64,000 nucleotides of DNA from Arsenophonus sp. Lineage in GTDB: Bacteria; Pseudomonadota; Gammaproteobacteria; Enterobacterales; Enterobacteriaceae. This document shows, piece after piece, positions 2,155 through 63,061 of this stretch. Position numbers and translations under genes: made by a program. The stretch covers positions 340,678 through 404,677 of the forward strand of contig CP132909.1 of the NCBI GenBank assembly GCA_031446125.1. Direction: 5' to 3'. Below the pieces are notes generated by a model. That model had not been told where the DNA came from. It worked only from the letters and a program-made list of their open reading frames with translations, and searched no databases. The first letter of the stretch is position 1. The number at the start of each line of letters is the position of its first letter.

Positions 2155-3603
2155 TTATATTTCTGTCCCACCAACGGTCATACTTTCTAATTTCAATGTT
2201 GGTTGACCTACTCCAACAGGAATACTTTGACCTTCTTTTTCACAAGTACTAATACCACTATCAATTTTTAAATCATTTCCAACCATTGAAATTTTCTGCA
2301 TAATATCCTTACCAGATCCAATCAATGTAACTCCTTTTATAGGTTTAGTAATTTTTCCATTTTCAATTAAATAAGCTTCTAGAGTTGAAAATACAAATTT
2401 TCCAGAAGTAATATCAACTTGTCCACCAGAAAAAGTAGGTGCATAAATACCTCGATGCACACTATCTATAATTTCTTCAGGCATTGATTTTCCTGCTAAT
2501 AAATAAGTATTAGTCATGCGAGGCATAGGTAGATGTGCATAAGATTCACGTCTTCCATTTCCAGTAGAAAAAGTATCCATCAATCGTGCGTTCATCTTAT
2601 CTTGCATATATTTTTTTAAAATTCCATTTTCAATTAACACATTATATTTACCTGGTACACCTTCATCATCAATTGCCAAAGATCCTCTATGTCCAAATAA
2701 TGTAGAATCATCAACAACAGTACAAAGTTCCGAAGCAACTTTTTTTCCTAATTGATTACTAAAAACAGATGTCTCTCGACGATTAAAATCACCTTCAAGA
2801 CCATGTCCTACTGCTTCATGTAATAAAATACCTGGCACACCAGCTCCTAATACAACAGGCATTCTCCCTGCTGGGGCAGGGACAGCTTGAAGATTTATTA
2901 ATGCTATTCTTACAGCTTCTCTAACATAATATTCTACTAAAAATTCACCTTCATTTTTTTTAAAAAAATATTGATAATCATAACGACCACCGCATCCACT
3001 AAAACCACATTCACGTTTTCCTTTGTCCTCAACTAACACTTTAATAGACAAACATACTAATGGACGCAGATCAGCAGCTAATGTCGAATCTGTCGCTACA
3101 ATTAAAATATGTTCATAAATTCCTGATAGATTAATATTAACTTCTTTTACTCTTGAATCTTCTGATCTTGCAATTTTATCAATACGCTGTAAAAATTCTA
3201 TTTTTTCTTCCTTATTTATTAATTCTAATGGATTACTTCTAGGATACACAGATTTAAAATGAACATTATTTAGAATACACTTTTTTTTTTCACTTTTTTT
3301 ATTTAAAAAACCACATGCTGTAAGTGCACTTTTATATAAAGTTTCTAAACTTACTTTATTAGTATACGAAAATCCTGTTTTATTATGATCAATAACACGA
3401 ATACCAACACCTTCATCAATATTATAAGAACCTTTTTTAATAATTTTATTGTCCAATTCTAATCTTTCATGAAATAGTGATTGAAAAAAAAGATCAGCAT
3501 AATCTATTTTTTTTTCTGTCAGTAATTCTAAAATATCCTGAAGATGTTGATAATTTAAATTGTTTGATGTTAGAAAATGTTCAGTAACGATATTTAAACT
3601 CAT
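2155..3603 (-). CDS. tldD: Metalloprotease TldD
   Basis: 482 aa versus 481 in E. coli. The [11 protein letters not shown] zinc-binding motif and C-terminal GVGQPTLK are visible. Confidence 0.95.
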
Positions 3604-4524
3604 ATTAATTCACTCATTTTTATTGCATTTAATTTTTATAAAATAGCAAAAAAAAATATAAATATTAATTTTTATGATTTTAATCATAATAGTTTTTATA
3701 ACTTTTTAGTATTTTTATGATTCTTTAATTTTAAAACAAAACCTGATGATTTTATCAAAAAATATTCGATTTTTATAAAAAAAAATAAAAACAAAAGATT
3801 TTTTATATTTTTCTTTAAAAAGAATCAAATTAAATTTGATTTTACTAATAAATATATTAGTAATATTTTGATTTATAAATTATATCAACATTTATCAAGA
3901 TTAAGATTTTTAAAAGAAACAAGTACAGCGATTTCAAAAAAAAATATTTTAAATTAAATTTAAAGTCATTATTTAAACGATTAATATCAAATCTCGATAG
4001 TATATTTATCTAACAAATATAAATTAAATTAATTTTAAATAGTACCTATCATAATATTTGAATTTATACCTAAATAAACTGGAAAATCATTATTTTTTAC
4101 TCTTAAAAATTTATTTTCCTTTTTATGGTTTTTGCATAAAATTTTTCTTAAAATTATATCATCAAAATAAAAATTTTAAATAATAAATATATAAATTTAA
4201 ACTATTCATAATATTATTTTCTTAGAAAAAACCTTTTAAAAATTGTTTGTTTAATTTTTTTATTATATTTTATATTATAGATAATAAAGTTTTATTTTCT
4301 AAAATTTTTATTAAAAAATATAAAAACTTTCTTTTAAATTTTTTATTATGTACCATAATTTTTATTAATTCATCAAAAAATTTATTAACATTTCTTTAAA
4401 AATTAATTTTTTTATTAAAAAAATCTTTTATTTTTTAAATATCAGAAAAAAGCAGAAGAATATTTTCATATTCAAAATTACTATGCAAAATAATTGATGC
4501 AGTTTATTTTTTTTAAATATCATT

Positions 4525-6870
4525 TCAAAGTGGAATATTAATAGATACTTTGCCATATGAAGTAGTAATTCCAGATAAATAACGTATAATAAATTTCGGC
4601 AAAATAAAAATTTTATCAACTTGCCAATCACTAGAAAAATTAATATTAATATAATAATTTTTTTTTGTTTTTATTGTTTTTAATCTTAAATTTACAGGTT
4701 GTCCAAACCATTCAGCACATAATTTTTTACTTTCAAAATGACTATTTTGAAAATAAATATACCCAGTTAATTTTTTAATTTTTTTATCAAAAATATGAAT
4801 ATCATTTTTATTAAAACCTACTCTTCCACTAAAAATAAAAGCATGAGAATATTCTTCAAGAGGGATAGAAAGCATAAATTGACCAGTAAGTTTACCATGT
4901 ATTTTGACTAAATTTAATATCTTAATAATTTTTCTTTTGATAGGTGTATGAATTAAATAATTTCGTAACGCTTCTATATCCGCATTAACTTTTGAGCTTA
5001 TCAATAATTTTGAATGACCATAACCAGTAATATTTCCGTTAATATCTAATATATCTATATTTCCTAATTTTATTCTATTAGAAGATATATGCAATCTATT
5101 ACGTTCAAAATTTAAATCAACATCTAAATTTAAAATTCTAGGCCAATTATTTTTATATTGAATAATTGCTGATCGTAAAGGTATAAAAAATTGAAATTGT
5201 CCATTATTTTCTTTAAAAGAAAAATTATGTGGGTTACCATGAAATAATAAAGTTGCTCCATCCACATGACCAGAAATAATGGTTTTTTTAAAATAATCAT
5301 TTAATTTTTTTCCTATAAAGCGTTGAGGAAAATAATGCCAAACATCACTAATATTTTTTAATTTTGCACCAGCTAAAACACTTAACATGGATTGTTTTTT
5401 ATTTTCTATCAAATAACGAAAATCACCACTAATCCATAATGATTGTGCTTGTAAGTTTATATTTTTACCTAAAATTAAATCTAATTTATCTTTTCTAGAC
5501 CAAAAAATTGTTCCATATCCACTAGAAATATACAATGGTATTTGAAACATTGATTTATATTCAATCTTGCTATTATGTAAATTAAAATAAAATACCCCTC
5601 CCAGATAATCCCCTTTAAATGATCCACTACAATGATTAATAGCAAATATATTTTTAAAATTTGTTAAACTCATATCATTCCAAGTTATATCAATTAAAGT
5701 TTTTTCTGGATATTTAGGTGTCACATCTAATACTAATCTAACAATTTTTCCTTTTAGTTTATATTTTTCAAAATCATGGATAAAATCAGGCATAAAACAA
5801 GAAAAAATAGCAAAAAAAGATCTTAATTCCTCTAATGCAATATTATTTAGTACTATGTTCCAATAATCTTGATTTTGATGTGTTTTTGACTTTGGGAAAT
5901 AAAAAAAGGATGCTTGACCTTCAAGCCACTTCTTTTTATCTGTTTCAAAATTTTGTAATTTTGGAATATAAAAAAACCAATTCTGTTCTTGATGTTTTAT
6001 ACTCAAATATATATCTTTAAAAGATATTTGATGTTTTTCTTGATCTAAGTTCCAATTTACACTTCCTTTATCGAAGTATATTTGCCCATCCTTAATGCGA
6101 TTATTTTTGATTACAATCCAACTAGAAAAACTAAACACTGAATTTTCTAAATTTATCTTTCTATTTACCAAAAAATTCAACCAGGGATATAAATTAACAT
6201 TATTACCATGTAAATATACCATTCCTTTATTTATATGATTGTTTTTATGGTAAAAATTAATTTTAATTTGTATAATATTTTGATCTGTTTTTTTTTCAAA
6301 AAGATCAAAATTTATTATACCTTCTGCTAAATGATTGTCATTTTTATTGAACCATATAAATTCTGGAATATTTAATCTTCTTTTTTCTAAGAAAGGAGAT
6401 AAAAAGTTTATATAACTATCTTTAAGAATTAATGAATGAATTTTCTTAAAGAAAACATTACTAAAAATATCTGATTTAAAATAATCAAAATTAGCTTCAC
6501 TAATAACATTTAAAAGTGTATAATAACTAACATGTAATTGATACAAAGCAATTTCGTGAAAATATAAATCAAAAGAAAATAATGAACGCCATATATCTAA
6601 TAAAAATGTTATTTTTTTGATCTTAACATTTATTTTTTCAGAAAAAAAGTTAACATCAGAAAAAACGAATGTTGGGCGAAAAGAAGTGAATTTTATTTTA
6701 AAATCTTTAATTTTTAATGGGATCCCAGTTAATAAGTGAATATTTTTTTCAAATTGATTTTTATATAAATTAATTTGAAAAAGAAAAAAACGGGATACGA
6801 TAAAAAATAAAAAAAATATCACTAGTATAGCTTTAATTCTATATACTAATAACTTAATTATTTTTTTCAC
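4525..6870 (-). CDS. yhdP: AsmA-family envelope protein YhdP, N-terminal ~60% only (truncated gene, possibly a pseudogene)
   Basis: 781-aa ORF with a GTG start and AGGA 8 nt upstream. It has an N-terminal TM segment, and the following region resembles the E. coli YhdP N-terminus. It occupies the yhdP position between tldD and mreD. E. coli YhdP is about 1266 aa. Here a TGA stop at 4525-4527 is followed by 921 bp with no ORF. Confidence 0.7.
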   Translation of the reverse strand: MKKIIKLLVYRIKAILVIFFLFFIVSRFFLFQINLYKNQFEKNIHLLTGIPLKIKDFKIKFTSFRPTFVFSDVNFFSEKINVKIKKITFLLDIWRSLFSFDLYFHEIALYQLHVSYYTLLNVISEANFDYFKSDIFSNVFFKKIHSLILKDSYINFLSPFLEKRRLNIPEFIWFNKNDNHLAEGIINFDLFEKKTDQNIIQIKINFYHKNNHINKGMVYLHGNNVNLYPWLNFLVNRKINLENSVFSFSSWIVIKNNRIKDGQIYFDKGSVNWNLDQEKHQISFKDIYLSIKHQEQNWFFYIPKLQNFETDKKKWLEGQASFFYFPKSKTHQNQDYWNIVLNNIALEELRSFFAIFSCFMPDFIHDFEKYKLKGKIVRLVLDVTPKYPEKTLIDITWNDMSLTNFKNIFAINHCSGSFKGDYLGGVFYFNLHNSKIEYKSMFQIPLYISSGYGTIFWSRKDKLDLILGKNINLQAQSLWISGDFRYLIENKKQSMLSVLAGAKLKNISDVWHYFPQRFIGKKLNDYFKKTIISGHVDGATLLFHGNPHNFSFKENNGQFQFFIPLRSAIIQYKNNWPRILNLDVDLNFERNRLHISSNRIKLGNIDILDINGNITGYGHSKLLISSKVNADIEALRNYLIHTPIKRKIIKILNLVKIHGKLTGQFMLSIPLEEYSHAFIFSGRVGFNKNDIHIFDKKIKKLTGYIYFQNSHFESKKLCAEWFGQPVNLRLKTIKTKKNYYININFSSDWQVDKIFILPKFIIRYLSGITTSYGKVSINIPL

Positions 6871-7682
6871 TCCATATTTCCTGAAAAAAAGTTTTTATAA
6901 TAATTTATCTTTCATTATACGATACTAAATTGTCTCAGATTAAAGAGTGATTTTAATTTTTGATCTTTTAAAAGAGATATTCTTAAGAAATTGTGATTAA
7001 AAACTCTTAAATTTATATATAATATAAAAATGATTATTAGAAATAAAAACATCAAAAAATGATATTAATTATTCAACGAGACTTTTAATATATAATATAA
7101 ATAAAATTTATCTAATTTTTATTCTATAAAAAATTTTTTTAATCAAAATTTTTGTAAGAAATAATCCCATTATTTAAAATAAAAAAATTAAAAATACTAT
7201 AAAATAATTAATTCAATTAAATAAAATTATGAACATAAAATTATAATTTAAAGATATTAATTATTTAATATAAAAATATAAAACAATAATTTAAAAATGT
7301 TGCAAATTATTTTTCAAAATTTTATAAATAAAATCTAAAAATAAATTAAATTTTTTTATCAAAAGTTTACGAAAAATTTTGTTTTATTATTTGTAAAATC
7401 TGTAATTTTATGTGATATATTAAAAAATAAGATAAAATTTTGTATCGTAATTTTTTATAAAATACGTTAAATCTAAATTAATCTAATATAAATACATTAT
7501 TTATTATAATACTAAATTTATTTTTTAAAAAAAATAAATTTCATGCATTATATATTTTTTTACACATTTTTTTTGCAATATTAAAAACATATTTCTTTAT
7601 TTAATCTATGATGAAATAAAAATGATATCAATACAAATTAAAATTAAATTTTTAATTAATTAACATTTTATAAAAAATTAAT

Positions 7683-9303: not shown

Positions 9304-10359
<1,056 letters not shown>

Positions 10360-11309
10360 CTAAAAATGAAAAAAATATTTACATATTTCTACTTTGTTAA
10401 TTGCTTTAAATTATAAAAATCATTAATTTTTAGAATTAATGTATTTTTTATACAAATATCTAAATCTTGAATATGACAAATTTAAAATTTTTATCTTTTA
10501 AATAAAATTATTTTAAATAATATTATCTTTAAAAAATCAAAAAATGAGTATTAAAATCTAAATTGTAAATTAAAATTTAAATTGAAAAAAATAAAAAATT
10601 GTATACCATCAATATAATTTAGAAATAATTACTGATATATTTTATAAAAATTTATTTAGATAAAAATAATATATTTTCTATATTATATAGATTTTTTTAT
10701 ATTAAAAGCATAATTTTTTAAATTAATTATTTTTTAAATTTAATAAAATAGTTGTTCTTATAAAATTATCAATGATATGCATCATAAAAGATTAAGTCAA
10801 AATAAGGAATACATATTTATTACTAAAAATATTATCTTTTTTCTGTATTAAAGAAATAAAAATAAAGCTGCGCTTGCTGCACAACATAAAGTAATATTAA
10901 AATATAATACCAGGATTAATTATTTTAATCCCCGATATTAATTATCTTTTTAAAAAAATAATAAGTCACATAAAATTTATATAATAAATCAGAAGTACCA
11001 AAAACTGGTATTATTAATATAACACATATCCTATAAATTTTATAAATATTAAAATAACTTTTCTTAAGCTTATGAAATATTTCTAAAAATAAAATTTAAA
11101 AATAATATTTTAACCTAAATGAACAAAAAAAATATATTTTTAAATAATTTTATTTTTTTAATTTAATATATTTTTATTTAATTTTTAAAAGATATTTATA
11201 TTTTTTACCTTTTTTTATTATAAAGAATAATTTTCATTCATAAGGAATAATGATAAATTATAAATATTTGTATATCAAATTTGCAAAAAATCAACCTGGA
11301 GCTATAAAA

Positions 11310-13697: not shown

Positions 13698-14931
13698 TTT
13701 TACATGAATATATTTTAAAATTTATTAGATATTTCTGCATCATTAATGATAAAAAACGTATACTTATTCTTTTTTTTCTTTTTTTATAATTTTGGTTTTG
13801 ATTTATATATAAAAAACATTCTTAATAATTAACATTAAAACTTGAACAGTGTAAAATAAAAAAATTTATCATAATAATTCAAAATTTATTGCAGATAAAT
13901 ATTTTTTAAAAAAAGTTTATTTAAAAAATAAATAAGTGATAAAATATTTTCTTATATTGTTTTTTTTATAAAATAATTTTTATATTATATTTTAGAATAA
14001 TTTATTTATAATTAATATATATTTAAAAAATAACATATTGAAAATTTTTCTTTTAAATTTTATAAAAAATTAGTTATATTTAACGTAACAATTTTTATTA
14101 AATATACTAAATACAAAAATTTTCTATTATTATTTTTAATATATTACCAAATTTTTTTTTATAATTAAACCATAACAAATTTTGCATTTTTATTTTAAAT
14201 AAAAAAATAATTTTACATAAAATAGAAAATAATATAATCATTTTGTTAAAAAACATTTTTTTTAGAAAAAATCTTAAAAGATTATTTTTTTTGTTATATT
14301 TATATAAATATTATTTCAGTAACATAAATATTTTACAATATAAATTTTATTTTATCCTGAATTTTATTTTTATTTTTAAAATAAAAATAGTAATCTTAAA
14401 TTACAAAAAAATTATAAATAATTTATTTACTGCTATAAAAAACAATATTTTAAAAAAATATCTTTATTTAAAAATCGAAACTTCTCTAGTATAAATGCAA
14501 AAAAAATATTAAAATATCTAAATAATCATTAAAAAAATATTTTTGATTAGAAAAAACATTTTTTAACGTTCAAAAAAACAAAAAAAATAACTAAGAAATA
14601 TTAATAAAATATAAATTTAAAATTAATGATTCATTAATAAAATTATTACAAATCATAAAAAATCTTTTCAAGTATAAGATATAATTTTAAAAATAAAAAA
14701 TAGTAACAATAATTCTTCTTTTTTAAAAATTTAATCACTAAATAGTTCTTTTTACAAAAGAATATAAACATTATATAAAATACCCTGATCAGACATACAA
14801 AAATACAAAAATAAAAATTTACAAATAAAATGAGCTTTAAAAAAAAATCAAAAATATTAAAAAACAAAAGATTATAATATTTATATATTCAAATAATTTC
14901 CTATTTATTTTTTTAAAAGAGCAATAAAATT
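13698..14931. other. ORF-poor AT-rich spacer at the ancestral yhdT-panF-prmA-dusB position
   Basis: 1234 bp between accC and fis. The only ORFs are two K/N/I/F/Y-rich low-complexity ones. E. coli has four genes between accC and fis. Confidence 0.6.
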
Positions 14932-16132: not shown

Positions 16133-18402
16133 TGATATCCTCTTTTAAATTAAATAAAGTCAATAAAAGAAAAATTTTTTTAAAAAAAATTACATCTAGA
16201 AATTAAATCTGTTATAGATATATTAAATCTTTTAATTTAATTCTATAATACCAAAAAATGCAAAAAAATAATAGATTAATTAAAAATTAGTTAAATTTAT
16301 GAAATAAAAAACTTTAAAATATTATATTTAAAATAATAATGATTATTACTACGCTGTACAATACTTTTAATGATTAATTTTTAATATATCATCAACTGAA
16401 AAAAATAAAAATTTCAAAAGAACCATAAATAAAATAAACTGAAAAAGAATTTTTTTTCTCCAATATTTTAATATAGAAAAACAAAAAACTATATTTTTCT
16501 TAGTTTTTTATAAAAAATATTGTATTTTAGATTATCTCTAATGACTAAAAATGCTTTAATAATAATTAATATAGCTAAAAAATAACATGTTACCGACTAA
16601 ATTATTTAACACAGGAAAATAAAAAATATAATTATGCATTTTTTATTCCTGTAAATTTATTTATGTTCACCACAAATATTTGTAAACAATTTAAAGTCTT
16701 TAAAATTAATTTTAATTTTAATAGTTTTGATAGATGATTTAAAATTTTAAAATAAATTAAAAAATAAAATTTCATTACAAAATTTTATTATTAATTCTTC
16801 TTATAAATATAAATATTTATAATAATTTATAATTTTAAAACATTTTTTTTATAAAATACTTTCTAAAAAAAATACATAAAAAATAATAATGTTATAAAAA
16901 TTATAATTAAAGTTATTTTTAAAATAATTTTTCTACAACATTAAAAAAATATTTAATAATTTATTTAACTAAGATGACCAAATTTTTTTTATTATCTTCT
17001 TGCAATCTTAATATTAAATGTTTAATAAAAAAAAATAATTACTATTATGATCTTTTTTCTTCTATCATTATTTATTTATAATTTGCTAATTATTTGCATA
17101 AATCATAGATTATAAATAGCTATTAAAGATATTAAAAAATAATTTAATATCGCATAAAAACTTTTTTTAATAAAAAACATCTAAATTATATTTTGTATTC
17201 ATCTATTAATAATAAGCTAGATTAATTTTTTATTAAAAAAAGTAATATTTTACCTAAAACGTTACTATTCAACTTATAATAATTAATTTAAGTAACATTT
17301 TTTGTAAAAAAAAATTAGTATATAATCAATATACAGATAAAAAATAAGTAGCATCTACAAAAAAATTACAACAAAGAAACATCATCGAAAAAAAATAATT
17401 AGATAATAGACTGCTATTTTAAGAAACTAATCTATCTAAGAAAAAACTTCTTTTTAAAATAGCAAAATTGAGATAATCTTTAAATCAAAAATATTAAAAA
17501 TAATAACCTAAATTCATTAATTAAAAAAAATAACTATTTAAATATTTTTTAAATTTTCAATAACCAGTTAAAATCTCATCCAAATTTATATGAAGCATAC
17601 GAATATATTAATTAATTTTTAATAAACATTTGTTAAAGAAATAAACTTTTCCAAAATATTCAAAATAAAATGTTGAAAATCCTTGAAATTCTTACTTAAA
17701 AATAACTGCCACTAAAATTATGAAAAAAAAGTACAAAAAATCAATATTTTTTGCTAATTTCAAAATAAAAAAATAAAATTTTTAATGTATTAGAAACAAA
17801 AAAATCGTAAATAAATGCATTTTTTTAATATTAATTTTTATTAAAATTATTTCTTCTTATCATTATCCATAAAATATCTTTGCTTTTTATGTAAAAAATA
17901 TTCATTAAAAAATTTAAAAGTCTGACGTATTATTTATGTTAATATATCACTGATTTGCAATTAAATTTCTAACGTTGATTTTAAAAAATATGTTTCATCA
18001 AATAAAAAAAACTGCAAATGTCTATACTTATATTCTGCATTCTTCTAAATAAACTTTTAAAAGTTTATTTTATAATGTTTTATAAATTTTACTGATTTCT
18101 CTAAAAATTTATTTATTACTTTTATGAAAACTATTTATTTTTTAATAAAAAATTTTCTTTAATTAAAATTTGTATTTGTTGATTGATTTCTTCAAATTAA
18201 TTACTTTATTTTTTACATTAATTTAAAATTAATCTTTTATTCTTGAATTAATGCATATTTATAAAATTATAAACACCAAAAAATTATTTCATGTTTATTT
18301 ATCTAAAATCTTTTTTAAAATTTTTAATTAAAATTTTTTTCTTTATAAAACTATCAATATTCAATTAAATATATAATCTATTTAAAAAAAATTATACATA
18401 AT
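16133..18402. other. 2.27-kb ORF-free AT-rich spacer at the ancestral ftsX-ftsE-ftsY position
   Basis: The track shows no ORF of 60 aa or more on either strand. The flanks are rpoH (-) and rsmD (+), which flank ftsYEX in E. coli. Confidence 0.65.
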
Positions 18403-21127: not shown

Positions 21128-23207
21128 TATAAAACTCCAAAAGAGAAGATAACCCGCTTAATTTATAAATTTAACTAAAAAAATACTTTTTATATTAAAA
21201 GTATGTAATTATACAATTTAAACAAATCAAATTTCAAGCTTATGCAAAAAATACCAATACGATATTGATTAATAAACAATGAATAAAGTTACATATAAAT
21301 TTATATAATTAATATAGATTTTTTAAAATTATCAAAAAAATATTTTGATTAATTAAATTTTATATAATAAAATATATTTTATTATATCATTTATAAAAAA
21401 TATAACAAATTGTTCTTTAACATAATTGATATACGCTTATTTTAATAAAAATAAGTTTACACAAATTATACTACTAATAATTTAAAATATTTGATTTAAT
21501 CTTATCTTAATATAAAAGTTAAATTTTATGATATTTATTTTTACCTATTATATATAAAATCATAATACAGTATATAATAAATTATAACAAATTAAATTAT
21601 TATAGAGTCTATAATAATTTAATCTATTAATTTATTAGTTTTTAAAATAATAAGTATTCTTAATTTAAAAACATTAATTCAAATCATTATATCATAAAAA
21701 AATATTTAATGTTTTTTTATAAAACACTTATAATTTAAAAATCATATATGCCTTTTTTCTAATAAAATTTTATAAAAATCTTATTAGAAATAGTATTTCT
21801 AATATTTTATTGAAGACAGTATATTATGTTTATTTAATATATAAAAAGTATGTAATTGAATAAATCATAAAACTACTAAAAAAGATATTGGTTAATTTCT
21901 GTTATATAAAAATACTGTGTAAGCATTTACAATGTCGTAGTTTTACAGAAAAAATGAAATTGGTATTTAACAAATTTTTTATTTAAATAAACACAACATA
22001 TTTTTAAAAAAAATAAAATTTTATATAATACCTATTAGATTTTATATTTCACATCAAATAAAATTATCTCTTCAATAACTATGCCAATTATAAATTTTAA
22101 ATACATATATAAAATTTATATATATTCTATAAACAAAAAATATTACTTATATAAAAATTATTTATATAAAAAATTAATTAATTTCAAAAAATTTTATATA
22201 AATCGCTTTATTAAATATTATAAACAAAGAAAAGAATATCAATATAATATTTTAATGAAAACTCAAATCAAAAATTGCATCTTATATAGAAATATCAAAA
22301 AATCATTATATTTTATCATTAATTTTCTTACTTAAATTTTTCATTCACACACTTAATTTTTAATAATTCAAAAATTTCTTTTTAAATAATTTTTTTCAAA
22401 AAATAATAAACAATAAATTTTATTTTTTATTGCAAAAATATAACATAAAATATTAATATAATAATTAGAAAGAATTATTTCAAAAAAAGAAAAATAGGTT
22501 GATTAAAATCTAACAAAAATACTAATATTTATTTAATTTTTTTTAAAAAAAATATATTTCAAATAAATATAAATTTTAAAATACATAATACATATAATAA
22601 TATTAATATATAAAATATTCTTATATTTACATATTATTTTTAAAAATAATTTTTATACCATCTTTTTGAAAACGTTAAAATATAAAAAAACATCGAAAAA
22701 AGTGAATTATTACATACAAAATCTTATATATACTTTTAGGAAAAATCTACAAAATTAATATATAAGATAATTGAAATACATCATAAGTATATAAATAAAA
22801 AATAATTGTACAAAAAAGCATTATTCAATAAGTAATAATTTTGATCGATGTATGAAATATTAAAAATAGATTTATATTTTTTACTTAAAAAAATATTAAA
22901 ATATTTTAATAATTAATTTAAAAATTAAATTAAATAAATCTGAATTTATTAGCCTATTGTACATAACGTAAAACGTATGTAAAATTATAATTTATAATAT
23001 AAAAATATGATCTAAACTTACTAAAATTTTTTTCAAATTCAATTCTTTAATTTTTTACAATATTAAAATATTAAATTTAATTTATATTAAATATTAATAC
23101 TTAATAAATTTAGAAATAAATTTAGAATAAATATTTTCAAAAAAAGATTACAATTCTCATTTATGATATACTTATGTAGAATTTAAATAAGAGGTCATAG
23201 CTAATAT
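21128..23207. other. 2.08-kb AT-rich non-coding spacer at a synteny breakpoint (epmA | plsB)
   Basis: It contains only one low-complexity 84-aa ORF (22081..22335). epmA and plsB are not neighbours in E. coli. Confidence 0.6.
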
Positions 23208-25652: not shown

Positions 25653-26518
25653 TCAAAAATTTAAAAAAATACCAATAAATAATGCCAAACCAACATAATT
25701 ATTACTCACAAATGCTTTAAAACATAAGATTGGTTGACGATTTGCTATCAATATTTGTTGATAAATAAAGATAAATAATATTAGTATTAAACTTATATAA
25801 TAAGATATACCAAAATCTATGTAATATTTCATGTAAAATAATACTAACAACATTAATAATTGCAAAATAAAAATAATTAATTTATCAAATCTTCCAAAAA
25901 TAATTGCTGTTGATTTTATACCAATTATTATATCATCATTACGATCAACCATTGCATACTGGGTATCATAAATAACAGACCAAATAATATTGACTAAAAA
26001 TAATAACCAACACTCCAAAGGAAAAGAATCAATAACTGCTGCATAAACCATTGGGATTGACCAACCAAACGTAATACCTAATATTATTTGAGGAAAATAA
26101 GTAAATTGTTTAAAAAAGGGATAAGTTACAGTTAGTAATAAACCGAAAATAGATAACACGATCGTTTTATTATTTAAATTTAAAACTAATAAAAACGAAG
26201 AAATAATTAATAAAAAAAAATAATTTTTGCTTCTCGTATACTTATGCTACCCTTTATTAAGGGACGTTTTTTAGTTCTAGAAACATAAGCATCAAATTTT
26301 CTATCAACATAATCATTTACAATACATCCGGCAGAACGCATCAAAAAAATACCAGTAGTAAAAATAAACAAAACATAAAAATTTGGCAATCCACGATTAG
26401 ATAACCACAATGCCCAATAAGTAGGCCATAACAAAAGAAAAAAACCAGTAGGCTGATTCAGCCGTATCAAATCAAAATAACACAAAAATTTATTAAAATT
26501 TAAAATTTTATTTTCCAA
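25653..26518 (-). pseudogene. ubiA: 4-hydroxybenzoate polyprenyltransferase UbiA, interrupted by a 1-nt frameshift in a homopolymer
   Basis: Track ORFs 26207..26518 (N-terminal 103 aa, with NDYVDRKFD) and 25653..26159 (C-terminal 168 aa, with [13 protein letters not shown]) are the two halves of UbiA. The C-terminal frame stays open upstream to about 26225. One extra T in the T9 run (plus-strand A9 at 26212-26220) would join them into 288 aa (E. coli 290 aa). Confidence 0.88.
26212..26220 (-). repeat. T9 homopolymer (coding strand) containing the ubiA frameshift
   Basis: Minus strand reads gca aaa att att ttt ttt tat taa. With T10 it would read att att ttt ttt tta tta att att tct (IIFFLLIIS), which aligns without gaps to the E. 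coli UbiA segment [10 protein letters not shown]. Confidence 0.9.
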
Positions 26519-27301
26519 AATTTTTATTCTCTAAATATCTTATTTTTTATTTTTTGTTATATAAAATTATATAACTTATTTACTTATATACTTATATCAA
26601 AATTATATGCTTATTTTAAATAACACTTCTATAAGCATTAAAGATGCCAATTTTAAATTTATCACATATTTATAATCAATCAGTAATACGTCTATATTTT
26701 TCAAAAAAATATATCGTTTACTAAAAATATATGAAAATAAATAACTAATTAAATATTATATTTTTTCTTATGATAAAATATAATTTTTTTTAATTATTTT
26801 TTTATTAAAAAAAATTAAACAAAATTTTTTGTAAAAAAATATTTTTATATATCTCAATCATATATTCTTTAAAATTTTTTTATTGACACTATATATTATA
26901 AAAAATTAATAAAGTATCAGATCAAAATATTTTTTTATATAAAAAATCACTAATAAAAAAATAAATATATTAATATTAAAATTTTTTAAAAAATTAAAAA
27001 ATAGAAATAAAATAATTACATTTTTTAAAAATACTAATTTAAAATGTATATAAAAAACAAGACATGAAAATGATATTTATAAAATTTTTTTAATGAAATA
27101 TTTTTACATTAAAATATCATATTTACTTAAAATTAACATTTATTTATTATAAAAATTTTATAATCTGTATTTTAAAATATAATAATATTATACTTTAAGA
27201 AAAATTAAAAGTATGTTATCTCTTTTTTAGATTTATTAAATCATTATTAAAAAATCAACAATAAGTTTTTTAGAAAAAACTTATTTATGGATAGATAAAA
27301 A

Positions 27302-29014
27302 ATGAGAACAAGTCAATATCTTCTCTGTACTTTAAAAGAAATGCCTTCAGATACTGAAGTAATTAGTCATAAATTAATGCTTAAAGCAGGCATGATACGT
27401 AAACTTGCTTCTGGATTATATAATTGGCTACCAACTGGTGTTCGAGTATTAAAAAAAATCAAAAATATTATTCGTGAAGAAATGAACCAAACTGGTGCAA
27501 TTGAAATTGCTACACCGATAGTTCAACCTGCAAAATTATGGAAAAAAAGCCGTCGATGGGAACAATATGGACCGGAATTACTAAGTTTTATGTATCATGG
27601 TGATGAATCTTTCGTTCTTGGACCTACTAATGAGGAAGTTATCACTGATCTTATGCGTCATGAAATAAATTCTTATAAACAATTACCTTTAAATGTATAT
27701 CAAATTCAAACAAAATTTCGTGATGAAATTAGACCACGTTTTGGTGTTATAAGATCTCGTGAATTTATTATGAAAGATGCCTACTCATTTCATATCGATC
27801 AAAAATCACTTCAAAAAACTTACGATATTATGTACACAACATATAATAAAATTTTTACACGTATTGGTTTTAATTTTAGAGTTGTAAAAGCAGACACTGG
27901 CTCTATTGGTGGTAATATATCACATGAATTTCAAGTATTAGCAGATAGTGGAGAAGATAATATTGTTTTTTCTAATAAATCAAATTATGCTTCTAATATT
28001 GAATTAGCCGAAACTATTTGTCTAACAAAACGTCCAAAACCTACTGAAAATATGCGTCTTATTAGTACACCTAACATAAAAAGTATTTCTGAATTATCAA
28101 AATTATACAATTTACCTATTGAAAAAATCGTCAAAACTTTAATAGTAATCGGTGTAAAAAATCATGGACATCAACTTGTTGCTTTATTAATCCGTGCTGA
28201 TCATGAATTAAATAAACTAAAAGCAGAAAAACATCCTTTAATTTCTACTCCATTAAAATTTGCCACAAAAGAAGAAATAAAAAAAATATTAAAAGTTAGT
28301 CCAAATACATTAGGTCCCATAAACTTATTAGTACCTATAATTATAGATAGTAGTGTTGCAGTCATGAGCGATTTTACTGCTGGAGCTAATATTAATAACA
28401 AACATTATTTTGGTATTAATTGGAAAAGAGATATCTCTATACCTTATATTTATGATTTACGAAATGTCGTCTCAGGAGATCCAAGCCCAGATGGCAAAGG
28501 AATACTACAAACGAAACGTGGAATTGAAATAGGTCATATTTTTCAACTGGGAGAAAAATATGCCAAAGCAATGAATTTTACTGTTCAAAACAAAAATGGA
28601 GATCATAAAACTATTACTATGGGGTGTTATGGGATTGGTATAACAAGAATTATAGCAGCAGCAATTGAACAAAACAATGACGATAAGGGGATTATTTGGA
28701 CCGATGCCATTGCACCTTTTCAAGTTGCAATTCTACCTATAAATATGCATAAATCATATCGTGTTCAAGAAGTTTCTGAAAAAATTTATCATGCATTAAA
28801 AAAACATAATATTGATGTATTATTTGATGATCGAAAGGAACAACCAGGTATAATGTTTGCTGACATAGAACTGATTGGAATACCACATATAATAATAATT
28901 AGTGAATTTCATTTAAATCAAAATCAAATAGAATATAAATATCGAAGAAATAACAAAAAAGAATTTATTAATCTTCTTGAAATAATTGATTTTCTAAAAA
29001 AAAAATGTAACTAG
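27302..29014 (+). CDS. proS: Prolyl-tRNA synthetase
   Basis: 570 aa versus 572 in E. coli. Class II motifs are visible: [25 protein letters not shown] and [13 protein letters not shown]. Confidence 0.96.
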
Positions 29015-29283: not shown

Positions 29284-30600
29284 TTATTTTTTTATTAAAT
29301 TAAGCTTAAGTTCCATTCCATCAATACATCTTCCTGATTCTGTTACAAAAACATTAACAGCTGTAATAAGTACATCATCATAATAAATTAAAGGAATTCT
29401 TTTTCTGAGCCAAGGCGCAACACCTAATTCTTGCCATAATTTTTTGCTTTTTCTAGAATATTTACGTCCAATAATTTGAATATTTCCTTTTACTCCAAAT
29501 CTAACAGTAACTTTTTCATCAGAAAATGGAAAACGAAAACCGATCCCATGATTTGCAATAATCAAAGTACCTAAATTATCAGGCAATATAAGAGGTTTAG
29601 AAAGATTCCATAGCAAAGAAATATTACTAATATCTTTAAATTTTGGTAAAATCCATAACTTTTTTTGAAAACGACGAATAACATTATTTTTTAAAATAAA
29701 TTCTGGTTTTGCATCATTTCGTGCACATATAACTTCTTGCCAAATTATCTTTAATTGAAGACAGGAAGGCATCAAAATTTTATGCAAACGAAACCAACAT
29801 CGCAATATTGCATTACGCTTAATTCTAGAATAACTTAACAAATCAGTTATTTTTAATGCCCCTTGATCTGTAATTAAACGTGAGAAACAATCTTCTAATA
29901 ATTCATTTAATAAAGTTTCTTGTTCTGCACACAAAGTAGCACTTCTAAAAACTGCATGAGAAAAATTTGGCCATCTACTACAAAAATGTGGCATAATATT
30001 TAAACGCAAAAAATTACGGTCATAAATTTTATTTTTATTACTATCATCTTCTATCCAATAAAGTATTTTTTTTTTTGCATATAACTCTAATTCTTTACGA
30101 GTAAAAGATAATAATGGTCTTATTAAATAAGTATGAAAAAAAGGCATAGAAAATGCCATAGAAGATAGTCCAGCGGGTCCACTACCACGCTTTAATGCTA
30201 ATAAAAAAGTTTCAGCTTGATCATCTAAATGTTGTCCTATAACAAGAACTTCTTTTGGTAATAACATTTTACGAAATGCTTGATATCGAGCAATACGTGC
30301 TCCTCCTTCTAAACCATGCTCAGTCGAATCTATATGAATATACTGTAAATGAAATTCTACTTTCCAATTGAAACAGATTTTTTTACAATGAATTAACCAA
30401 TTATCAGCTTTATGATTAATTCCATGATGAACATAAAGTGCACGAATATTTAAATTAGGATTTATAATTTCACGTAATCTTACTAGTGCATGTAATAATA
30501 CAGTTGAATCTAATCCACCGCTAAAACCTACTAATAGATTTTCTATAAAACCAATATTTTTGATAATTTTCTTTAAAAATATTATTTCATTAATACACAT
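29284..30600 (-). CDS. tilS: tRNA(Ile)-lysidine synthase TilS
   Basis: 438 aa with the PP-loop VGFSGGLDSTVLLH and the GQHLDDQAETFLL motif. Syntenic next to accA. Confidence 0.92.
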   Translation of the reverse strand: MCINEIIFLKKIIKNIGFIENLLVGFSGGLDSTVLLHALVRLREIINPNLNIRALYVHHGINHKADNWLIHCKKICFNWKVEFHLQYIHIDSTEHGLEGGARIARYQAFRKMLLPKEVLVIGQHLDDQAETFLLALKRGSGPAGLSSMAFSMPFFHTYLIRPLLSFTRKELELYAKKKILYWIEDDSNKNKIYDRNFLRLNIMPHFCSRWPNFSHAVFRSATLCAEQETLLNELLEDCFSRLITDQGALKITDLLSYSRIKRNAILRCWFRLHKILMPSCLQLKIIWQEVICARNDAKPEFILKNNVIRRFQKKLWILPKFKDISNISLLWNLSKPLILPDNLGTLIIANHGIGFRFPFSDEKVTVRFGVKGNIQIIGRKYSRKSKKLWQELGVAPWLRKRIPLIYYDDVLITAVNVFVTESGRCIDGMELKLNLIKK

Positions 30601-45074: not shown

Positions 45075-46660
45075 AAAAAAGAATTCCTGCTCATAAATTA
45101 ATAGAAATATTACATTTAATTTTTATGAATAATAAAAACAAGATTACTAAAAATTAAGAAAAAATATGTTTATTGATAAATGTAAAAAATATTTTATTTA
45201 AAATATTAATTGCATTTAAAAATAAAAACACACTGCATTTATACATTTTGCTAAAGAATAACAACATTAAGTATTAAACTATAAATTAAATTTAAATAAA
45301 AAATGTTTATCATGTCAAAAATTAAATATTAATTAACATCATTAAATATAATTTTTATTATATTTTATAAGATTAGATAAAATATCATATATTGTATTTT
45401 TTATATTTTTTTAGTTTTTATTTTTAATAATAACATTTATTTAAAATGATAATAATTAATTATTTGACTATGTGCAATTTATATTATTTTAAAATATATT
45501 TTATTGATTGATTTTTAAAAAATATATTTTATGCATAAAGATTTTATATAATCTTTTAATTTTTAAAAAATTAACAAACACTCAAAATAATCTATATTTT
45601 TTAAAAAGTATAAATTTTACATAATACTTAAAACAATTCTTAATAAAATCTATAATCTATTATGAATTTTTATTGTTTTATTTCCTATAAAATATAGGAA
45701 TATTATAAATATAAAAATTTTTATTTTTAAAATATATTGATGTATTTATTAAAAATAAATTTCTATTTTAAATTTTATTATAAAATATTACTAATATTTT
45801 TATATCTAAAAAATTTTATACTTATAAGAAATATAAAACATTAGAAAATATAACCTATTATTTTATAATTCATGAAATTAATTAATAATTCCTATTTTTA
45901 AAAATTCTCATATTTTAAATCTATTTTTATATAAAAATTAATAGTTTCAAAATTTTGAATAGATATTTACAAAACTTATTAATATTAAAACTTTTCATTT
46001 TTATTTATATTTTTAAAAATTATAAAACTATATTTTATAATATGTAAAAAATAACAGAAATTATCTAAATCTTTATTTTTAAGCTTTATTGTTTGAATTT
46101 TTAAAATAAAAAATTATTGACAATAATCATAAATAGAACATTTAATTAATATTTAATATTTTATTATAAAAAATATTTTCTTTTTTATATAAAAATACTA
46201 AAATTTAAAAAAAATAAAACACAGTAATATTTTTACTAAAATCATAATATATAAAATATTTCTAAAAATTATCTTACAATTGTTTTATCAAACAATAATA
46301 TTGTTATCATTATTCAGATCATTGTAAATTGAATATCAATATAAATTATAATGACATATAATTATCATAATTATGATGAAAATATTTTTTAAAAAATAAT
46401 ACATTATTTTTAAAATTTTTATATAAAATACGGTATCTTATTTTTATAAAAAAAATAATAAACGTAATATTTTTTTTATGCTTAAAAAACAAAAGTTAAA
46501 TAAACATAAGATATTAATTACTTAATTGTTTAATTTTTATTTAAAACAACATTTTATCAAATAAAGAAAAAATACTAATTTATCTAAATAATACACTAAA
46601 TATTAATAAAATACAATTTTACGTAATTATATAATATAGTTTTGATAAACAAATATTTTT
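45075..46660. other. 1.59-kb ORF-free AT-rich spacer between uppS and dxr
   Basis: The track shows no ORF of 60 aa or more. In E. coli, dxr and uppS are adjacent with a short spacer. Confidence 0.6.
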
Positions 46661-52572: not shown

Positions 52573-53417
52573 TTTTAAAATTATTTACCTAAAATAATTA
52601 ATGGTACGTTTTTGATAAAATCAATAATTTATTCATAATAAATAAACTTTTTATTTATGATAAATAATATTGATTCATGGAAGACACATACATATTATTT
52701 ATTTAAATTATAATTTAATTATAGTAAAAATATTGTGATTAAAAATTATTATAAATTTTGTTATATCACTTAGATTTTAAATATAAAATTAATAATAATG
52801 TATGTGTTTTTTTTAAAATAAAAACTAATTTATTGTAAAATTTTTAAAATTTATTTTAAATGACATGCTATTAATATAAATTATTGATTTTATTTTTATA
52901 AAAGTTTTTAAAAAATCCTAAAATACAGATCACTTTATATTAATAAATAAAATTTTATATGTTATTTTTCATAAGATTTTTATATTGATTTATAAAAATT
53001 ATAAATTTATATTATCAAATAAAATATTCAAAAATACCTAATATACTATCAAATAAATTTTAAAAATATTAGTATTAAGCTTTATTTTAAAAAAATAATT
53101 CTTAAGTTTTATAATTCATAGCTGATCAATTATATCAAAAAAAATAATTTTATATTAATATCTAATTTACATCCTATAAAAATTTTAATTTGATCATAAA
53201 TTATTAACCAAAATTTATTAATTGTTACAAACAAATATTAAAATATAATAATATTTTCTAAAATGAAAATTGATATTTTGAAAAAAATAACTTAAAAAAT
53301 TTAGTAAAAAAAAATAATAATACATTTTAAAAAAATAAAAAATAATTAATAATTATTATTATTTATATAAATAAAGAAATACAAAAATTTATTTAAAATG
53401 TACAGGTAAAATAATTT

Positions 53418-54242: not shown

Positions 54243-55066
54243 TATTTAAATTTAAGATACAACATATTATTGATTTTTGATTTAAAAAATTACATAATTA
54301 AAATATATATTTCTTTTAATTATCTTATATACAAATTAAATATAAATCATTAATAATATTATAGATATAATAAAATAATATTTTAAAATATAATACTGCA
54401 ATATACATTTATATAAATTTTTCATTTATTTTTGATATTTATCACAATAAATAGAATTTTTCAAGAAAATGTTTAATCTATGTAATATATAAAAATAATT
54501 AAATTTAGTATAACAAATATTATTCTCTCAATAAGATATTAATATTGTCTAAATAATTTAAAGATTGTTTTTCTGTAAATTTAAAAAATATTTTTTACAA
54601 CATATACTATTTCCATTAAACTATTCATAAATGTATCGAATCAATTTTATCGTATTTAGATAATTGATATATTAATGAAAGAAACTTAATAATTATTGAT
54701 CAAAAAATAAAAAAATTCATTCATAATATTTTGTTACTTTTAATAATTTTATTAACTGCCTATATTTTCTATAAAAAGTAAAAATTATATATTTTTCTGC
54801 ATAAAAATAACATATTTTTCAAAATGTTAATAAATCTTAAACAAAATTATAATATAATTATTTTTATAAATTTAAAAATGTTTAACATATTAAATATAAC
54901 AAAATTAAAAATTTAAATTTTTAATGATAAAAAAATTTTAACAAAATCAATAATTAGTCTTCAATATTGCGAAAGTATTTTTTAAATAAAAAATTATAAA
55001 AATAATATATTAGATTAATGATTATTATATTTATTAAAATAATTAAAAGAAATTTTATCTTTTTTA

Positions 55067-55102
55067 CTACAAATACCAATATAACTATAAATACCAATAT
55101 AA
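55067..55102. repeat. Tandem duplication, 2 x 18 nt (ctacaaataccaatataa / ctataaataccaatataa)
   Basis: Read directly from the sequence: two adjacent 18-nt units that differ at one position, inside the dapD-amiC spacer. Confidence 0.7.
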
Positions 55103-55267
55103 TTAATAATAACTATTCATTTAATTAAAATATTTACAATCAAAACTTTAAGAAATAATTTAATAATCAATTTTAATAAAAAAATAAAATTTTTAAATAA
55201 AAAATAATCATTATTAATATTTTTATAAAATAGAAAAATCATATATTTACTTTAAAGTTTATGACTT

Positions 55268-56542: not shown

Positions 56543-56781
56543 CAAAGATCTACTTAAAAACATCAAGTTATTATAACTTATTGAATTATATTTACAAAGA
56601 AAAAAAAAAGTCATTATTTTTTATAACTAATAAAAAATAATGAATTTAATAATATAGGAGAAAATACCATTTAAAAAACAAAAAATTTTTGTTATGAAAT
56701 AATTATTTTTCTAAATACTTATTAAATACAAAAAATATATTCTTAATCATATTAAAAAACACTCATGATTATTTATATAAT

Positions 56782-62229: not shown

Positions 62230-63061
62230 TTTTATTTTCCGTATTCAATATTTTTTTATAAATTTAAATACCATTTTAACAAAATGATTAAAATATTAAA
62301 TTTATAATAAATATACTTATCAATTTTTTTAAAATACAGTAAGAAATTTTTTAACAGCATATTTTAATGAATACTTTGTTAAAATAATTAAATAAATTTT
62401 AAAATATTTCTTATAGATATTTTTAAACATATAATTTTTTTTAAACATTTATTTAAAATAGATAATAGAAAAAACATAAACAAAATATTAATGGTATATC
62501 ATTATGATATTTTTAATTATATAATGTATAAAATAAGAAAATAATTTTTATAAATATTAACTATTATATTCTATATAATTTTTATAACTTTATCTTTTAT
62601 TTTTATTTTAAAAAATTTATACTTTTTATATAATGAATAGAAATTATTTTATAAAAAATTTTAAATTAAAATAAAAAAAAACAAAAAACCCTTCTAAAAT
62701 TTAAAAAATATCTAATTTAAACAAATATTAACAATCAGTCATAAATAATTTTATTATTTAATTTTATAAAATTACTAATCATTAATTATTATTGAATAAT
62801 ACATTTCTAAAAAAATTTTTAATAAACTATTTTAGTATTATCTTATTAAAATTGTTGATTAATCTCATATATTGTAATCGTAAAAATTATGAATCATAAT
62901 TTTATATTAATATCCAAATTAAATAAAAATTAAATAGTTTATAAAAAATAGAAAAATCTAATTGTTTTTGAATTATAGAATTTTTTTATTATATATATTG
63001 TAAAATATATATACGTACATTTATTTTAATAAATAAAAAATATATCTCAAAATGTATATAA

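Follow-up and report, generated by a model that had tools for sequence, protein, structure and literature searches.

A single-base frameshift in a T9 run of ubiA, shared by Arsenophonus symbionts of louse flies and probably bypassed by recoding

Genes of Buchnera and Blochmannia that carry frameshifts in homopolymers are, according to work by Tamas et al. in 2008 and Wernegreen et al. in 2010, reportedly rescued by transcriptional slippage. Bacterial RNA polymerase slips efficiently in vivo on nine A or T residues, and for frameshifted genes of these two endosymbionts 12-50% of transcripts are corrected in this way (PMC5009743). Of 157 insertions in Buchnera transcriptomes, 151 fall within A/T homopolymers, single-base insertions dominating and the rate rising exponentially with run length (PMC5574713), and in Blochmannia conserved homopolymer frameshifts have been treated as functional genes (PMC3017870). 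Here we describe a comparable lesion in ubiA, the gene for 4-hydroxybenzoate polyprenyltransferase, within 64,000 nucleotides (nt) of an Arsenophonus sp. genome (contig CP132909.1, positions 340,678 to 404,677; this whole stretch is called the window, and positions are counted from its first base). The window has a G+C content of about 23% and belongs to an Arsenophonus with a reduced genome, a member of the Ornithomya-Crataerina louse-fly cluster.

The likeness to the Buchnera and Blochmannia cases is close. The organism is again an AT-rich obligate insect endosymbiont, a single-base indel lies in a long A/T run of an otherwise intact open reading frame (ORF), the frameshift has been kept between species without further decay (compare PMC3017870), and the proposed rescue is a mixed pool of messenger RNA (mRNA). 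All three sequence-level features of the class are found in ubiA, namely an indel in an A/T run of about nine bases or more (~>=9), a gene otherwise intact, and conservation without erosion. The differences are that lineage (louse-fly Arsenophonus) and gene (ubiA) are others, that the run, T9 in the sense strand, is among the shorter ones studied there, and that heterogeneity of complementary DNA was measured in Buchnera and Blochmannia, whereas the ubiA case is purely comparative. The preliminary description of this DNA had already appealed to frame restoration by slippage in these two endosymbionts, for which the literature gives 12-50% of corrected transcripts (PMC5009743). A second set of relatives comprises Thermus thermophilus dnaX (9 T) and Citrobacter rodentium tssM1 (11 A), in which the polymerase likewise realigns and adds bases to give a full-length product (PMC5009743; PMC4256274). 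Those sites yield two useful products in a set ratio, however, while the unshifted ubiA product (103 amino acids (aa), with one Asp-rich motif) has no evident function; the frameshift in ubiA looks like a tolerated lesion and not a designed switch.

In the window ubiA is encoded on the minus strand by two ORFs arranged head to tail. The 0-frame part (26207..26518) begins with TTG at 26516-26518, contains 103 sense codons including an intact first Asp-rich motif (NDYVDRKFD), and ends with TAA at 26207-26209. The -1-frame part (25653..26246) is open from 26246, already 26 nt upstream of the T run, and stops at 25653-25655; about 186 of its codons, from the run onward, would be in use. Counted from the first GTG (26157-26159) it forms a C-terminal ORF of 168 aa (25653-26159, minus), and it holds the second Asp-rich motif, also intact. 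The N half matches the family model TIGR01474 (ubiA_proteo) at profile positions 3-94 (120.5 bits) and the C half at positions 114-280 (179.2 bits), each alone falling below the cut-off of the model. In the UbiA family both Asp-rich motifs are needed, and with one in each half neither could be a complete enzyme by itself; the split separates parts that must work together.

At the junction the 0 frame reads ...GCA AAA ATT ATT TTT TTT TAT TAA, and the site of the 1-nt deficit is the T9 homopolymer (26212..26220, minus; A9 on the plus strand). A run of T10 restores the ubiA frame over 288 codons, and so does T7, with one Phe fewer. The restored protein reaches 327 bits on TIGR01474 (cut-off 275.45) with both Asp-rich motifs present. 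It aligns with E. coli K-12 UbiA (290 aa) at 54% identity and with 0 gaps over 283 residues, and with 17 Morganellaceae UbiA proteins without internal gaps. It is closest to Arsenophonus UbiA (62-68% identity), and its alignment to the solved structure 4OD4 runs across the frameshift site. The account of the locus given in the preliminary description holds throughout: the adjacent minus-strand ORFs are the N and C halves of UbiA, as the TIGR01474 matches confirm; the N frame stops where and as quoted there; the C frame is open through the T run and ungapped against E. coli; one extra T gives 288 aa against 290 in E. coli; and both motifs are intact, with no further stop in either half.

The same arrangement is present in three relatives, picked by a tblastn scan with one genome per species and compared over stretches of about 10 kb to each side of ubiA. 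These are the symbionts of O. biloba (L060; CP132907, 874,825 bp), O. fringillina (L070; CP132903, 933,061 bp) and Ornithomya chloropus (L069; OZ032148). The window is distinct from all three and nearest to the O. fringillina symbiont, with 91-96% identity over ten genes common to both loci; exact-match look-ups with its PlsB and with each UbiA half gave no hit. A four-strain Ornithomya-Crataerina cluster has been described as monophyletic, syntenic and cospeciating with its hosts, the O. chloropus symbiont not being among the four (PMC10654098). The tblastn matches to ubiA in all three relatives have lengths that are not multiples of three, and DNA alignment places a T9 run at the identical position in the window and the three relatives, one added T giving 288 codons in each. 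The bases flanking the run differ among the four genomes (A or C on the 5' side, A or G on the 3' side). In all four the start codon stands at the same position, as TTG or ATG, the N frame ends two codons past the run, with TAT TAA or, in the O. chloropus symbiont, TGT TGA, and the C frame opens 26 nt before the run and stops at the same place. Recurrence of this arrangement in three other genomes indicates that it is not a chance pattern of ORFs. In a protein search with the UbiA C half the sole related fragment was P0121 (185 aa), from the O. chloropus symbiont.

Where ubiA is intact, in more distant relatives, the run at this site is shorter and in frame. Most Arsenophonus read TTA TTT TTT TCA (T7), and the symbionts of Aleurodicus floccissimus and Lipoptena cervi have T8, in frame. 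From this distribution the cluster ancestor most likely had ATT/CTT TTT TTT TTA (T10) and then lost one T, a deletion (T10 to T9) that would predate the divergence of the Ornithomya-Crataerina Arsenophonus. The literature searched, main texts and supplements, contains no report of frameshifts, homopolymers or ubiquinone in louse-fly Arsenophonus, and as far as that literature shows a conserved homopolymer frameshift appears to be new both for these symbionts and for ubiA.

On comparative evidence both halves of ubiA are under purifying selection. Pairwise ratios of non-synonymous to synonymous divergence (dN/dS), calculated by the Nei-Gojobori method from the four restored sequences, lie at 0.15-0.29 over the full length, at 0.19-0.34 in the N half (codons 1-100) and at 0.13-0.33 in the C half (codons 104-288), at a pairwise synonymous divergence (dS) of 0.17-0.47. 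The excess of synonymous over non-synonymous change is significant in each half (Fisher p 1e-3 to 1e-15). This method is crude at 23% G+C, and the same method applied to the neighbour genes plsB, proS, epmA, accA, tilS, rsmD and dnaE, where dN/dS is 0.04-0.31, provides the control. A comparison of run length and dN/dS in sister strains had been proposed in the preliminary description, and its outcome is T9 in four of four genomes with ratios of 0.13-0.34 across both halves. Neutral sequence behaves differently. When positions 15000-37000 of the window were aligned by MAFFT with the three related loci, spacers were 70-87% identical and rich in indels, the 783-bp spacer beside ubiA alone showing 18-26 indel events per pair, whereas the ubiA halves, like plsB and proS, were free of internal indels and 87-94% identical. 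In a neutral simulation of the 202 observed substitutions an average of 11-17 stops was expected and none of 3000 runs was free of stops (0/3000); the number of internal stops observed in the ubiA halves across the four lineages is 0.

Of the two possibilities previously offered, a pseudogene of very recent origin or a gene that slippage keeps expressed, the shared T9 and the purifying selection in four genomes disfavour the former and support the latter. That the deletion simply inactivated ubiA, which is now decaying, would agree with the frameshift itself, with the annotation of one relative, in which only the 185-aa fragment P0121 is called, with the lack of ubiC beside ubiA, and with the gene loss under way in the cluster (PMC10654098). 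It is nevertheless extremely unlikely, as the lesion is common to four lineages at dS of up to 0.47, with dN/dS of about 0.2 in both halves and with neither the stops nor the indels that neutral decay would have brought. Taken together, the shared T9, the low dN/dS and the absence of stops and indels exclude a recent pseudogene, unless four independent, identical and very recent deletions are supposed. A gene that is simply intact, with a true run of T10 misread in sequencing or assembly, is suggested by the fact that homopolymer length is the commonest consensus error. However, four separately deposited genomes have T9, and for two of them, those of the O. biloba and O. fringillina symbionts, Illumina 2x250 reads and SPAdes assembly are documented (PMC10654098). 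The window has 40 runs of at least nine bases, about 25 of them in frame inside intact genes at lengths of 9-11, among them T10 in tldD (3281-3290), A10 in proS (28996-29005), T11 in tilS (30066-30076) and A10 in amiC (56600-56609). Elsewhere there are no internal frameshifts in the 10 neighbour genes compared with the three relatives, all indels being multiples of three or at gene ends. With T9 deposited four times separately and long runs called in frame, an assembly error becomes very unlikely, to a degree that we consider it scarcely credible. A third proposal is that the N half and a separately initiated C half assemble in the membrane. Some polytopic membrane proteins do tolerate splitting, and in the O. 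chloropus symbiont TTG codons past the run allowed the gene caller to begin the 185-aa ORF (P0121) there. These TTG codons occur only in that symbiont, though; in the window the -1 frame, open from 26246, meets no ATG, GTG or TTG until the GTG at 26157-26159, and where this GTG stands the O. biloba symbiont lacks a start codon. Moreover, in each of the four genomes purifying selection acts on the 19 codons between the run and the GTG, which encode a conserved hydrophobic segment. Over codons 102-120, directly past the run, the window and the O. chloropus symbiont differ by 7 synonymous and 2 non-synonymous changes in the C frame, the changes including TTA TTA to TTG TTG, which in the N frame would replace Tyr by Cys. 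Constrained codons after the run and the lack of a conserved start suggest that the C frame is entered at the run and has no initiation of its own, which speaks against two separate polypeptides. We rejected that reading because no start is conserved and the bridging codons are under constraint, and attach a very small probability to it.

The constraint on both halves indicates that ubiA is very probably functional through recoding at the run, and for recoding in which transcription is the main route we estimate a probability of about 0.6. Standard decoding of a U9 mRNA would give a useless 103-aa fragment. In a share of expression events decoding would move to the -1 frame within the run and yield the full 288-aa enzyme, a switch that needs either an mRNA longer by one base or a ribosome one base back; as both would occur within the run, the protein would be the same. 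By the transcriptional route RNA polymerase would realign backward on the nine-base rU:dA hybrid and add one U, and the resulting U10 mRNA would be translated normally. Slippage of tRNA-Phe by -1 on U_UUU_UUU may contribute as well, with an identical protein as its product.

A rescue that is mainly translational is unlikely but has definite sequence features in its favour. In this case P- and A-site tRNA-Phe would slip back by one base on the U_UUU_UUU heptamer, continue with UUA and produce 288 aa from a U9 mRNA. The heptamer (26213..26219, minus), made up of the third base of codon 100 and codons 101-102, is a candidate -1 ribosomal slip site and stands in the exact 0-frame X_XXY_YYZ register in four of four genomes (motif definition in PMC4066793). 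A Shine-Dalgarno-like element, GAGAAG (26230..26235, minus), ends 9 nt before the run, at a spacing near that of the E. coli dnaX stimulator; it is present in three genomes and is replaced by a perfect AAGGAG in the O. biloba symbiont (L060 ~10280-10300). There is also a precedent in chloroplast atpB of Oenothera (I-iota), where a homopolymer frameshift in an essential gene of a reduced, vertically inherited genome is partially corrected, as proposed for ubiA, and where the correction was ascribed to the ribosome and not to transcription (PMC8254509). It indicates that ribosomal correction of a homopolymer lesion occurs and is hard to tell apart, although atpB is a recent mutant with a phenotype, its frameshifting involves a downstream stem-loop, and its correction was measured (PMC8254509). 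These features count against transcription as the main route, as do the facts that the two routes give an identical protein and so cannot be separated by sequence, that production of full-length UbiA is deduced only from evolutionary constraint, that the dN/dS method is crude at this base composition, that conservation of the run length is unexceptional (3 of 11 other runs of at least nine in neighbour genes are identical in the four genomes), and that ubiC gives no tblastn signal beside ubiA in the window (spacer 26519-27301) or in five loci of obligate louse-fly Arsenophonus (L060, L069, L070, L081 and L006). Several observations speak for the polymerase instead. The GAGAAG bases also encode conserved residues 95-96 (Arg-Glu, Glu96 being invariant), followed by an invariant Lys98, so that the element, weak in three of four genomes, could be explained by coding. 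No stable or conserved RNA structure is shared by the four genomes in the 75 nt downstream of the run, where minimum free energies range from -0.3 to -11.6 kcal/mol and z-scores against shuffled sequences are -0.6, +1.6, -0.9 and +0.6. A programmed ribosomal site would usually have such a structure, and its lack counts for the transcriptional route. Slippage by -1 on heptamers of this kind is generally low without stimulators, while a run of nine bases fills the RNA:DNA hybrid, and a nine-base rU:dA hybrid is the classic substrate for polymerase slippage. The resemblance to the E. coli dnaX-type -1 frameshift, a heptamer in register preceded by a purine-rich element at a distance of about 10 nt, is limited in the same way, as ubiA has no downstream hairpin, its Shine-Dalgarno-like element is weak in three of four genomes and could be accounted for by coding, and only the -1 product is useful. 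A nascent-RNA hairpin pairing an upstream A run with the U run was also considered as a stimulator of slippage and discarded; it appears in two of four folds, has very little stability (-0.3 kcal/mol for the O. biloba symbiont), and its A run is explained by Lys98. Rescue could finally lie in the DNA, if each cell holds many genome copies, as it probably does, and a T10 minority kept up by replication slippage supplies UbiA. Homopolymers are prone to indels, mismatch-repair genes as well as those for heme synthesis are reportedly missing from the O. biloba symbiont (PMC10654098), and such a minority would equally sustain purifying selection on the ORF. This is very unlikely nonetheless, since the four consensus genomes are all T9 and none T10, and T10 copies, if favoured and easily formed, should have swept in at least some lineages.

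Reversion to T10 should be mutationally easy, and none of the four lineages has reverted (0/4), one of them reportedly without mismatch-repair genes, which raises the question whether T9 itself is maintained. In such a case selection would keep T9 as a device that sets expression, through a low UbiA level or a coupling to polymerase or ribosome kinetics, and a lesion would thereby have given rise to a programmed recoding site; we regard this as distinctly doubtful. The comparison of runs gives no sign of selection on the slippery run as such, its length being no more conserved than that of comparable runs. Run-length conservation as proof of such selection was in fact ruled out, given the 3 of 11 in-frame runs that are equally conserved. 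The run in tilS varies among the four genomes (11/9/10/10) by substitutions at its ends and not by indels. If the polymerase does slip at the T9 of ubiA, intact genes with runs of 9-11 should also give a sizeable share of out-of-frame transcripts.

For annotation, the practical consequence is that ubiA should not be counted as lost in this cluster, as otherwise the committed step of ubiquinone synthesis would be wrongly dropped from pathway reconstructions and the gene wrongly added to pseudogene counts. No new mechanism is revealed by the ubiA case, and it would hardly surprise a specialist. What it adds to Buchnera and Blochmannia is an independently evolved lineage of blood-feeder symbionts in which a homopolymer frameshift is conserved under selection, and four species with the same lesion form a natural test set, both for the parts played by polymerase and ribosome at a nine-base run and for the question why no reversion has occurred.

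As to the pathway, both E. coli and A. nilaparvatae (L003 9436-9966) have ubiC adjoining ubiA. Decayed remains of ubiC in the 783-bp spacer before ubiA were considered and rejected, there being no tblastn signal in the window or the five related loci. The symbionts of Lipoptena and Melophagus have an intact ubiA despite having no adjacent ubiC, which indicates that a missing neighbour does not imply loss of UbiA. No other ubi genes lie within the 64-kb window. Genes for precursors are intact there, namely dxr and uppS in isoprenoid synthesis and aroQ in the shikimate route.

The surroundings of ubiA differ between these symbionts. In those of Lipoptena (L081 7933-9585) and Melophagus (L006) pgi is directly upstream of ubiA; the window and the three cluster relatives have no pgi in the ubiA neighbourhood, and a divergent proS follows past the 783-bp spacer (window 26519-29014). 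Within this spacer a purine motif, AGAGA (26528..26532, minus), about 10-14 nt upstream of the ubiA start, is invariant in the four genomes, the spacer overall being only 73-87% identical, and is possibly a weak ribosome-binding site.

Farther away, yhdP (minus, 3604-6870) is shortened. Its ORF (4525-6870) matches positions 1-779 of the 1266-position YhdP model, and the 920 bp downstream (3604-4524) have stops in all frames and three A9 runs; the C-terminal half of the gene looks eroded. At the start of the window rapZ was considered as a second truncated gene, and dismissed as it is simply cut by the edge of the window. Spread across the window are long spacers (0.8-2.3 kb) with 10-14% G+C and no ORF matching a family (6871-7682, 10345-11249, 13698-14931, 16133-18402, 21128-23207, 45075-46660, 52573-53417, 54243-55267 and 62230-63061). 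Those covered by the relatives, 70-87% identical and with many indels, served as the neutral control for ubiA, and the long low-G+C spacers are probably the remains of lost genes.

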